Source: an uncultured bacterium
GTDB taxonomy: Bacteria > Chlamydiota > Chlamydiia > Chlamydiales > FEN-1388
Length of the DNA stretch: 64,000 bases
Reading direction: 5' to 3'
Assembly (NCBI GenBank): GCA_964487845.1
Contig: CAZASK010000009.1
Coordinates: 5-64,004 of the forward strand
Shown here: piece by piece, positions 48,705 to 50,052 of the stretch
Layout: each line of letters starts with the position of its first letter
How positions within the stretch are numbered: position 1 is the first letter of the stretch
The notes under the pieces: generated by a model
What the model was told of the DNA's origin: nothing
What the model saw: only the letters and a program-made list of their open reading frames with translations
Database searches by the model: none
Translations under genes and position numbers: made by a program

Positions 48705-49163
48705 GTGAACAAGTCATTTGTTAGAAGGCATAAGGCGATTCAGGAAATTTTGCAGAAAGAGTTAGTTTCGGATCAGAGCCAATTGGTGGAGTTATTGCGG
48801 AAGCACTATTATATTGAAACCAATCAGGCTGTGGTCTCGAGAGATCTGCATAAGCTTGGTGTTGTAAAAAAACAGGTGAATGGAGTTTTCGTGTATGAGC
48901 TTCCTTTATCTGATATCCACGCAGAAATTTTGCAGCTTGCGATCATAGATGTTTGTCATAATGAATCATTGATTGTGATTCGAACACAACCTGCTCTAGC
49001 AGCTTTTGTGGGAGATGCAATAGATCAGCTTGAAGGATTGGATATTTTGGGTTGTCTTGCTGGAGAAAATGTCGTCTTTGTCACGCCACAGTCTACTCAG
49101 TCTATAAAAAAAACATATGAATCTTTGTGTCAAAAAATAGGGTTTAAGAAAAGGCATGTATAA
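48705..49163 (+). CDS. argR: arginine repressor ArgR
   Basis: RHKAIQEILQKELVSDQSQLVELL...NQAVVSRDLHKLGVVK winged-helix N-terminus. C-terminal GDAID...ILGCLAGENVVFV oligomerisation/arginine-binding motif. GTG start. Confidence 0.85.
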   Translation: MNKSFVRRHKAIQEILQKELVSDQSQLVELLRKHYYIETNQAVVSRDLHKLGVVKKQVNGVFVYELPLSDIHAEILQLAIIDVCHNESLIVIRTQPALAAFVGDAIDQLEGLDILGCLAGENVVFVTPQSTQSIKKTYESLCQKIGFKKRHV

Positions 49164-50052
49164 AAAAATAGCATATATTAGACTTCTTTCGAAATTCCAT
49201 TTGGTTGTTAAAATTGCCATTTTTGGCATCTTTAGCTGCAAATTTTTCGACCATATGCTCACATATTGCTCTCAAAATTTGCAACTAAACCTGCCAAAAA
49301 TCATCAATTTTTCCAAACAAAGCAAATTTCGAAAGAAGTCTGTTTTTATTTTTTGTTTTCTTGTGTGTGTATTGTGTAGTTATACAAAAAGTGATACGCT
49401 ACTTGTTGGCACAAATGCGGAATTCCCTCCGTTTACCTCGATTGTGAATGGAAAAATCGTAGGGTTTGATATTGATGTTATCACAGAAGTGGCAGCTCGT
49501 CTCGGCAAGAAAGTGCAGTTAAAAGATATGCCATTTGATGCGTTGATTCCTGATGCTGTTCTGGGCCATGTAGACTGCATTGCAGCAGGGATGAGTTATA
49601 CAGAAGAGAGGGCACAACGAGTTTTCTTTACAAAGCCCTATATCACATCTGATCCTCTTGTTATTTTGACAACAGCAAATTCAAAAGCTGCAGTCTCTCT
49701 CGAAGATCTTGTAGGAAAAAATGTTGTGGTGAATGAGGGGTTTACTGCCGATAGTTTGCTTTCTGCAAAGAATGGTGTTCATATTATTAGACTTCCAACG
49801 ATAACAGATGGTTTTTTAGCCCTGATGAATAAGCGAGCGTATGCTTTTGTTACAGCGCGAAGTACTTATGTTACATTTTGTAAAAATCAAAAAAATACGC
49901 TTCAGGCTTATCCTATAGAAGGTTCCTCTGAGACGTGTGCTTTAATTGTGCCAAAATCAAAGCCCGAACTTCTCAAAGCGATTCAAGAAGCGCTTGATGC
50001 CATGGAGCAAGATGGTACGATTGCCTCGCTTAAGGAAAGGTGGGGATTGTAA
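49156..50052 (+). CDS. amino-acid ABC transporter substrate-binding protein (ArtJ/GlnH-like); start uncertain
   Basis: LLVGTNAEFPPF, GFDIDV and PYITSDPLVIL are family-3 SBP motifs. The only ATGs upstream of the signal-like segment FIFCFLVCVLCS are 49156 (before the MITE) and 49255 (inside it). Confidence 0.75.
   Translation: MYKKIAYIRLLSKFHLVVKIAIFGIFSCKFFDHMLTYCSQNLQLNLPKIINFSKQSKFRKKSVFIFCFLVCVLCSYTKSDTLLVGTNAEFPPFTSIVNGKIVGFDIDVITEVAARLGKKVQLKDMPFDALIPDAVLGHVDCIAAGMSYTEERAQRVFFTKPYITSDPLVILTTANSKAAVSLEDLVGKNVVVNEGFTADSLLSAKNGVHIIRLPTITDGFLALMNKRAYAFVTARSTYVTFCKNQKNTLQAYPIEGSSETCALIVPKSKPELLKAIQEALDAMEQDGTIASLKERWGL
49180..49341 (-). mobile_element. MITE-like element, copy 3 (162 bp, inverted)
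   Basis: The same TIRs, AGACTTCTTTCGAAA...TTTCGAAAGAAGTCT. The internal sequence is the reverse complement of copies 1 and 2. It lies in frame and stop-free within the 5' end of the SBP ORF. Confidence 0.8.

Follow-up and report, generated by a model that had tools for sequence, protein, structure and literature searches.

A MITE (miniature inverted-repeat transposable element) lies in frame within a transporter gene in the 64-kb stretch of DNA from an uncultured member of the Chlamydiota that was analysed here (the window). The gene is predicted to encode the binding protein of an ATP-binding cassette (ABC) transporter and the element is the third of three close copies in the window. Comparison with orthologues makes it probable that this non-autonomous palindromic element inserted within the signal-peptide coding region, with both the reading frame and the ancestral start codon being kept. 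It would have landed 8 codons into the gene, adding 55 codons, and such an insertion would be tolerated in that the pre-sequence alone is altered.

Structure of the element and of the interrupted gene

MITE copy 3 occupies positions 49180-49341 (+), bounds that replace the 49156-49345 of the initial annotation. It is a near-perfect palindrome of 162 nt, read as 54 stop-free codons in the frame of the binding protein (RLLSKFHLVV...KQSKFRKKS). The terminal inverted repeats (TIRs) are 17 nt long, AGACTTCTTTCGAAATT, and are found at 49180-49196(+) and 49325-49341(-) with 0 mismatches, 17/17 positions being complementary. There are 8 matches to the TIR motif in the window when up to 3 mismatches are allowed, against 0.49 expected, and the elements defined by these TIRs are three close copies and one diverged cousin. 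The element is flanked by a target-site duplication of which the left copy (49177-49179, +) is ATT, codon 8 (Ile), and the right copy (49342-49344, +) is GTT (Val), one substitution from ATT. The net insertion is 162 nt plus the 3-bp duplication, which is 165 nt or 55 codons. The coding capacity of copy 3 is limited to 54-aa peptide frames and there is no transposase. It is a genuine, non-random element with the characteristics of a MITE, being short, without a transposase, bounded by TIRs, flanked by a duplication of fixed length and present in dispersed copies. Its RNA folds as one long hairpin, with a minimum free energy of -63.2 kcal/mol (z = -10.4).

The 20 aligned orthologues of the binding protein are 231-247 aa long and start M-[Y/K/F/N]-K-K (also MKxK) with a hydrophobic stretch directly after, as in MYKKIVVLIV..., MYKKILFLLSC... 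and MFKKILFTFLC.... Their alignment with the window protein begins only near residue 57, and the window open reading frame (ORF) itself begins MYKKIAYI. These first 8 codons (49156-49179, +) start at ATG 49156, in an 8-nt overlap with the stop of the regulator gene argR. The gene order argR-binding protein-permease-ATPase is conserved in three orthologous loci (L001, L002 and L003), where argR has a conserved end, GGnTTTAAAAAAAGG, and the ATG of the binding-protein gene comes no more than a few bases after it. This ATG has a 4-nt overlap with the argR stop in L001, is 4 nt after it in L002 and has a 1-nt overlap in L003. In the window, ATG 49156 is one base after AAAAGG and overlaps the argR stop (ATGTATAA). 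Because the orthologues start M[YKF]KK at the argR stop, and 49156 is at the same position and encodes MYKKIAYI, this ATG is, as judged from the alignments, the positional orthologue of the ancestral start. The element is not upstream of the gene, nor ahead of the signal peptide as the initial annotation had it; the orthologue N-termini and argR junctions contradict both placements. The alignment of orthologous junctions that the initial annotation proposed finds the ATG at the argR stop in all three loci, as at 49156, and includes no empty site from a close relative.

With the element and one duplicate removed, the sequence reads ATG TAT AAA AAA ATA GCA TAT ATT TTT ATT TTT TGT TTT CTT GTG TGT GTA TTG TGT AGT. 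The reconstructed ancestral N-terminus, MYKKIAYIFIFCFLVCVLCS, has an n-region and a hydrophobic h-region and is of the length seen in the orthologues. On this reconstruction the MITE has split the signal peptide between ancestral codons 8 and 9 (MYKKIAY-I / FIFCFLVCVLCS, then YTKSD...). What survives of the signal peptide, its hydrophobic core and c-region (49342-49380, +; VFIFCFLVCVLCS), aligns with the h-regions of the orthologues. The h-region is of 12-13 residues and 9-residue Kyte-Doolittle means in the core are up to 3.46. Immediately before it the right TIR is read as KFRKKS (49324-49341, +), a positively charged segment resembling an n-region. It is this charged segment that the MITE donates ahead of the surviving core, and only possibly a start codon. 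Of the two outcomes originally proposed, an insertion ahead of the signal peptide or the donation of a start codon, the former becomes an insertion inside the signal peptide for which no donated start is needed, while ATG 49255 within the element is still a candidate for the latter. A lipoprotein signal was considered and rejected, since neither C71 nor C74 lies in a fitting lipobox and the Cys is not conserved in the orthologues.

The ORF of the binding protein (49156-50052, +; 298 aa) is open through the entire element and from 49156 into the mature domain, so that the earlier claim of an in-frame MITE holds. A single intact ORF results because the inserted length is divisible by three, no stop codon occurs in the element in this orientation and phase, and ATG 49156 with its argR overlap is untouched. 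The openness of this frame is only mildly unusual, since 14% of dinucleotide shuffles of copy 3 are also stop-free in any given frame; the significance of the in-frame insertion comes from what the orthologue comparison suggests, not from openness. The length of 162 nt, against 163 nt in copies 1 and 2, was considered as a compensatory deletion restoring the frame. This was rejected, 162 nt being the modal length of the family and shared by the copy in locus L120.

Start codon, export and alternative explanations

Before the mature domain the only in-frame ATGs are 49156 and 49255, as had been stated, although in-frame TTGs at 49201 and 49279, both inside the element, had been overlooked. No ATG is found after the element and before the h-region, nor a GTG or TTG that could serve. 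ATG 49156 is favoured as the start now used and is, on balance, probably the correct choice. Its predicted probability of being unpaired is 0.55, against 0.01 for ATG 49255, which is in the apical stem of the hairpin. In the proposed mechanism, ATG 49156 would be re-initiated from argR, with ribosomes melting the hairpin. This start would generate a 62-residue extension ahead of the h-region with an n1-h1-n2-h2 layout. The KFRKKS of the right TIR would place positive charge just ahead of the surviving 12-13-residue core, the core would still serve as a Sec signal, and the mature binding protein set free by signal peptidase would be unchanged. KFRKKS and the core could act as a Sec signal whichever ATG serves.

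Several observations weigh against the insertion having been accommodated in this way, with translation from the ancestral start. The 62-residue extension contains a second moderately hydrophobic stretch, residues 14-28, that could direct the protein to the wrong place or anchor it. Only 1 nt separates the Shine-Dalgarno-like AAAGG from ATG 49156, a poorer spacing than in the orthologues. The frame used in the window (f0) is natively open in 41 of the 66 family copies considered below, and 14% of shuffles are open, which makes the intact ORF weak evidence of selection. A strong hairpin followed by a U-rich tract could lower downstream expression. The age of the insertion is also poorly constrained, in that the protein database holds an identical protein (P0001, 298 aa as called in NCBI) and then a next-best orthologue of only 69% identity, too distant for a true empty-site or shared-insertion comparison.

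The MITE may instead have donated the working start. Initiation at ATG 49255 (49255-49257, +) would give a 265-aa precursor with a 28-residue n-region ending KFRKKS, 49156 being mere read-through or silent, an outcome that is possible but on the unlikely side. The codon is in frame with the binding-protein gene and part of the CATATG at the palindrome centre, which is kept in most family copies listed, and a start there leaves a single hydrophobic segment at the N-terminus, nearer to a canonical signal peptide. Gene callers also picked the internal ATG for the LptD protein P0193 and for P0168, but the choice of a gene caller is no proof of use. There is, however, no Shine-Dalgarno-like sequence upstream of ATG 49255, it is predicted to be base-paired in the -63 kcal/mol hairpin, and the ancestral coupled start is intact. 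Nor does the family depend on an internal start. Three embedded copies (P0140, P0156 and P0164) are without an internal ATG, therefore an upstream start must serve there. A start further downstream, with the element being intergenic and the long ORF a passive upstream extension, is highly improbable. Passive in-frame read-through does occur before the UbiA-like gene at copy 2 and in loci L042 and L089, but in these cases a linker and the gene's own Met follow the element, and the binding-protein gene has neither. GTG 49363, rightly considered a poor alternative from the outset, or TTG 49372 would leave about 5 hydrophobic residues at most and hence no signal peptide, and the lengths and N-termini of the orthologues put the start at MYKK.

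That the insertion inactivated the gene is improbable. The signal peptide would then be broken and the protein not exported, the intact ORF reflecting only a recent event that was frame-neutral and stop-free. Consistent with this, the h-region has lost its first residues, 54-62 foreign residues precede it, no relative shares the insertion, and an open frame is not improbable, being found at 14% per frame in shuffles and in 62% of listed copies for f0. Against it, of the 60 columns invariant in 20 orthologues the window protein matches 59 (left-out orthologues score alike) and the binding-protein, permease and ATPase genes have no stops or frameshifts. This argues against a decaying pseudogene, which the initial annotation had named as the finding that would count against it, although a young pseudogene would still be compatible with these features. 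It is likely that some time has passed since the insertion and that it is not of very recent date, because the two copies of the duplication are no longer identical (ATT/GTT) and copy 3 shows 5-11% divergence from its closest relatives. In lptD, which is normally essential, the arrangement is the same. An additional effect, not exclusive of the others and rather doubtful, is that the hairpin acts as an RNA insulator between argR and the transporter cistrons, lowering or uncoupling expression through a terminator-like stem with a U-tract, cleavage by RNase III or an obstacle to ribosomes. The stability of the hairpin is very high and GUUUUUAUUUUUUGUUUUC comes after it, and a parallel is provided by the Correia elements of Neisseria, which are co-transcribed and cut by RNase III. 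A terminator scan of 48500-49500 was empty, however, with the stem being far longer than the scan model and having an AT-rich base, and ribosomes from 49156 would melt the stem.

The element family and its insertions in other genes

The other two close copies in the window are intergenic. Copy 1 (19699-19861, -; 163 nt) is 19 nt beyond the 3' end of ORF 19881-21770(-), and copy 2 (26167-26329, -; 163 nt) is upstream of a UbiA-like gene that has its own Met at 26361, 32 nt past the element. The longest ORF of this UbiA-like prenyltransferase, 26247-27206, begins at a GTG inside copy 2, the real start likely being Met 26361; the ORF is likely a passive extension into the upstream MITE. The diverged palindromic cousin (54859-55024) shares only the TIR-like ends, has an AAT/AAT duplication and is intergenic. 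Its arms are 76% complementary and it adjoins a HigB/HigA-like pair (54014-54644) and a major facilitator superfamily transporter gene. On both sides of this toxin-antitoxin-like pair is a 57-nt direct repeat of 88% identity (53925-53981 and 54770-54826).

Species-representative genomes were scanned with the two TIR cores spaced 120-150 nt apart, which found at least 115 stretches across many genomes, with the TIRs conserved in more than 100 loci. Among the matches listed, about 65 copies are 72-89% identical to copy 3 and come from many Chlamydiota metagenome-assembled genomes (MAGs), the hosts including Parachlamydiaceae, Simkania, Waddliaceae and others. Within the Chlamydiota the family is widespread. 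The closest outside copy listed, in L120, is ~95% identical to copy 3 and also 162 nt long. Flank and frame statistics cover 66 family copies among the matches listed, and most family copies listed are intergenic. Flank analysis bounds the element as AGACTT...AAGTCT, with a modal length of 162 nt (41/66 copies). The 3-nt flanks are identical on both sides in 56/66 copies (ATT 34, AAT 17, ACT 3, TTT 2), and the target consensus is Y-A-W-T within AT-rich flanks. A copy usually has one open frame or more, the mean being 1.70 stop-free frames out of 6 vs 0.43 in dinucleotide shuffles, and f1 is open in 35/66. These open frames are a property of the element rather than 66 independent events, as the copies are related by descent. 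In frame f0 the right TIR encodes (E/K)FRKKS, of which FRKKS is invariant in the aligned f0 peptides.

The TIR cores GACTTCTTTCGAAA / TTTCGAAAGAAGT also bound 149-175-nt elements with unrelated interiors (55-61% identity). These were found in L006, L013, L022-L028, L045, L052, L058, L076, L011, L018, L068, L054 and others, from Eubacteriales, Lachnospiraceae, Oscillospiraceae, Holosporaceae, Mycoavidus, Patescibacteria, Burkholderiales, Cytophagales and Chthoniobacterales MAGs and also from Clostridia. The presence of the same TIRs around unrelated interiors suggests a widespread, cross-phylum parental insertion sequence (IS) family. A parental IS with the same TIRs was sought, and in the fetched loci no TIR pair encloses a transposase. 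Two sets of candidates were rejected: the 1117-nt candidate in L044 encloses a methionine aminopeptidase gene between two degenerate mini-elements, and those in L070 enclose phage-structural-like ORFs. A ~70-nt mini-version of the element at L044:5325-5395 (AGATTTCTTTGGAAAC...GTTTCCAAAGAAGTCT), adjoining the methionine aminopeptidase gene, suggests that internal-deletion derivatives of the MITE exist. The Cardinium "novel widespread MITE" is a 240-bp IS982 derivative and unrelated. An Rfam search with the element returned only sub-threshold matches to plant miRNA precursors, ascribed to the long hairpin, and the plasmid collection contained no match to it. A literature search of limited coverage, in which absence of a report is only absence of evidence, found neither a Chlamydiota MITE family nor a signal-peptide niche described.

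A second conserved gene with the same arrangement is lptD of a Waddliaceae MAG (L077, CAVVNU010000010.1), where ORF 3213-5501 contains an element at 3236-3397 with an ATT/ATT duplication. The element is 7 codons after the ATG, which is itself 2 nt past the upstream stop, and the stretch from the element to the h-region FYKIIPTLFFLFAFNLLVG contains no start codon. The orthologues of this LptD (698 aa) are without the element and have a plain MKK plus h-region signal peptide just before the conserved GIDID. By this comparison the MITE has split the LptD signal peptide in frame. The element is here read in frame f1, ends ANFERSL and has the central in-frame ATG, from which the database call (P0193) starts, at 726 aa compared with 762 aa for the ORF.

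Further cases were found through an exhaustive HMMER scan, in which a profile of the f0 peptide was run against 1.84 billion representative proteins. This was used instead of a word-indexed protein search with the MITE-peptide profile, which returned 15 short ORFs only and missed P0001. Besides short spurious ORFs, the scan identified ComEC (P0144), BatD (P0147), a thioredoxin-like protein (P0156), an HlyD-family protein (P0164), P0140, P0152 and P0168. These are envelope proteins from various Chlamydiota metagenomes with the MITE peptide at the very N-terminus. The N-terminal hydrophobic segment comes immediately after ...FRKKS in nearly all of them, with no Met between. P0144 is encoded at L120:3001-4689, and P0152 has two tandem elements ahead of an LAGC lipobox. 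Not all coding copies are N-terminal. Mid-gene in-frame insertions are found at L114:2842-3003(-), where both flanks of the element are homologous to P0140, and at L093:6841-7005(-), and at L086:3764-3925(+) the insertion replaces the C-terminal end of an ORF. In-frame insertion into conserved genes with homology on both sides is accordingly recognised by alignment for the binding protein, LptD and L114.

It is tentatively proposed, as somewhat less likely than not, that the preferred survivable coding niche of the family is the place where the charged n-region gives way to the hydrophobic core (n/h boundary) in the signal peptide or N-terminal anchor of an envelope protein. An insertion at this boundary would regenerate a start-plus-n-region module, because the element adds 55 codons, has open frames, ends in the (E/K)FRKKS of the right TIR and has a central in-frame ATG. 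If this is true, the element is a portable "signal-peptide patch" that leaves the mature protein untouched. It could spread through secretome genes of the Chlamydiota, including the essential lptD, and the hairpin could modulate translation or export.

Related systems, the operon and other features of the window

The Correia elements of Neisseria are ~100-160-bp TIR elements with a TA-containing target that are co-transcribed and form long mRNA hairpins. The Chlamydiota MITE resembles them in size, TIRs, TA-containing target and, by prediction, co-transcription with neighbouring genes and mRNA hairpin, but the effects of Correia elements are intergenic, on transcription and RNA processing, whereas copy 3 is inside a coding sequence. 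The extended signal peptide region (ESPR) type of autotransporter signal peptide has an n1-h1-n2-h2-c layout, and such long extensions before the h-region are compatible with Sec export. If 49156 is the start, the binding protein would have the same charged-hydrophobic-charged-hydrophobic layout, a likeness to be treated as a lead only. There is no homology, and while the ESPR is a conserved functional motif the extension of the binding protein is transposon-derived.

The closest description is that of the Rickettsia palindromic elements (RPEs), the best documented case of in-frame insertion in unrelated protein genes (Ogata et al. 2000 Science 290:347, as summarised in PMC10969869). As far as that summary goes, both are ~150-nt, palindromic and non-autonomous, belong to an obligate intracellular lineage, have a stop-free frame and are found in frame in unrelated genes, where they add a peptide segment without loss of the ORF. 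The Chlamydiota MITE, however, is from another phylum and is an analogue by description rather than a member of the RPEs. It has 17-nt TIRs and a 3-bp A-N-T duplication, as in a classical MITE, and its copies listed are mostly intergenic. Its embedded copies cluster at the extreme 5' end of genes before hydrophobic segments, not in surface loops of folded domains. Other bacterial MITEs that fuse in frame are intragenic ERIC, pneumococcal BOX, Coxiella QMITE1 and Anabaena MITEs (PMC10969869). These are likewise small and TIR-bounded with internal ORFs occasionally fused to host ORFs but, compared by description, none is at a signal peptide according to PMC10969869. In-frame palindromic MITEs are therefore already known, and it is the recurrent signal-peptide location that is possibly a new twist.

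The presence of RPE-like "selfish DNA in genes" is not confined to Rickettsia. In environmental Chlamydiota the MITE is abundant, and its 55-codon size and stop-poor frames make coding insertion tolerable. Recurrence at the n/h boundary suggests that mobile DNA can hide without cost in gene parts that are cleaved off. There are consequences for annotation. The deposited 298-aa call (P0001) and the 726-aa Waddliaceae LptD call carry transposon-derived N-termini, and if the element goes unrecognised in genes of this kind, their predicted start codons and signal peptides will be incorrect. As ready-made natural constructs, these genes could also be used to study what length of N-terminal extension is compatible with Sec export.

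The binding-protein gene is part of one operon of overlapping cistrons, argR-binding protein-permease-ATPase. The argR gene (48705-49163, +) encodes 152 aa with both ArgR domains (PF01316, 7.5e-16; PF02863, 3.2e-14). The SBP_bac_3 domain of the binding protein covers residues 82-297 (PF00497, 3.9e-37), scoring 127.4 bits vs a gathering cut-off of 26.4. The ABC permease gene (50052-50702, +; PF00528) has a probable ATG at 50052 that overlaps the binding-protein stop (TAATG, 50050-50054), and the ABC ATPase gene (50696-51403, +; PF00005) a probable ATG at 50696 in a 7-nt overlap (50696-50702) with the permease stop. By its domain and the adjacent permease and ATPase genes, the protein is classed as the SBP_bac_3 binding protein of a polar-amino-acid ABC transporter. 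Specificity for arginine is inferred from the argR linkage and the source names of some homologues only. In C. pneumoniae, argR-glnPQ is an ArgR-regulated arginine/glutamine ABC transporter operon, with ArtJ as binding protein. Both systems have argR directly upstream of polar-amino-acid ABC genes and ARG boxes upstream, but in the window the binding-protein gene is within the operon and carries the MITE.

An ARG-box-like operator cluster is found upstream of argR (48619-48693), with a perfect box at 48654-48671 and 2-mismatch boxes at 48619-48636 and 48676-48693. The ARG-box consensus TNTGAATWWWWATTCANW is that of the ArgR operators of E. coli, and 48654-48671 is the only 0-mismatch match to it in the 64 kb. 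With both ArgR domains and ARG-box-like sites near the promoter, the operon has the predicted features of one controlled by ArgR, and most simply it would be autoregulated from the one putative operator upstream of argR. The element was originally said to separate argR from the genes it controls. This is so physically, but the regulator-operator logic is intact because the ARG boxes are upstream of argR and the MITE is not between regulator and operator; the stop/start overlap of argR and the binding-protein gene is intact as well. A promoter and terminator consensus scan of 48500-49500 found nothing, which leaves the idea of an outward promoter or a canonical terminator within the element unsupported. 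The mRNA may nevertheless be affected, since GUUUUUAUUUUUU comes after the hairpin.

On either side of the operon are a leucine-rich-repeat protein gene (48042-48578) and a myo-inositol oxygenase (MIOX) gene (51439-52341), the latter being an unusual enzyme for bacteria. Elsewhere in the window, 15406-17912 is occupied by a large tandem array whose repeats have diverged (105/210-nt periodicity; families D1, D2 and D4), presumably a repeat-domain protein gene. A 9-nt periodic repeat at 46686-46856 (CCAGTAGCT/CCTGTTGCT...) would read as a Pro/Val/Ala-rich tripeptide repeat on one strand. A 48-nt inverted repeat (I4), 98% complementary, has its arms 37.5 kb apart at 1-48 and 37546-37593, the first being at the window edge.

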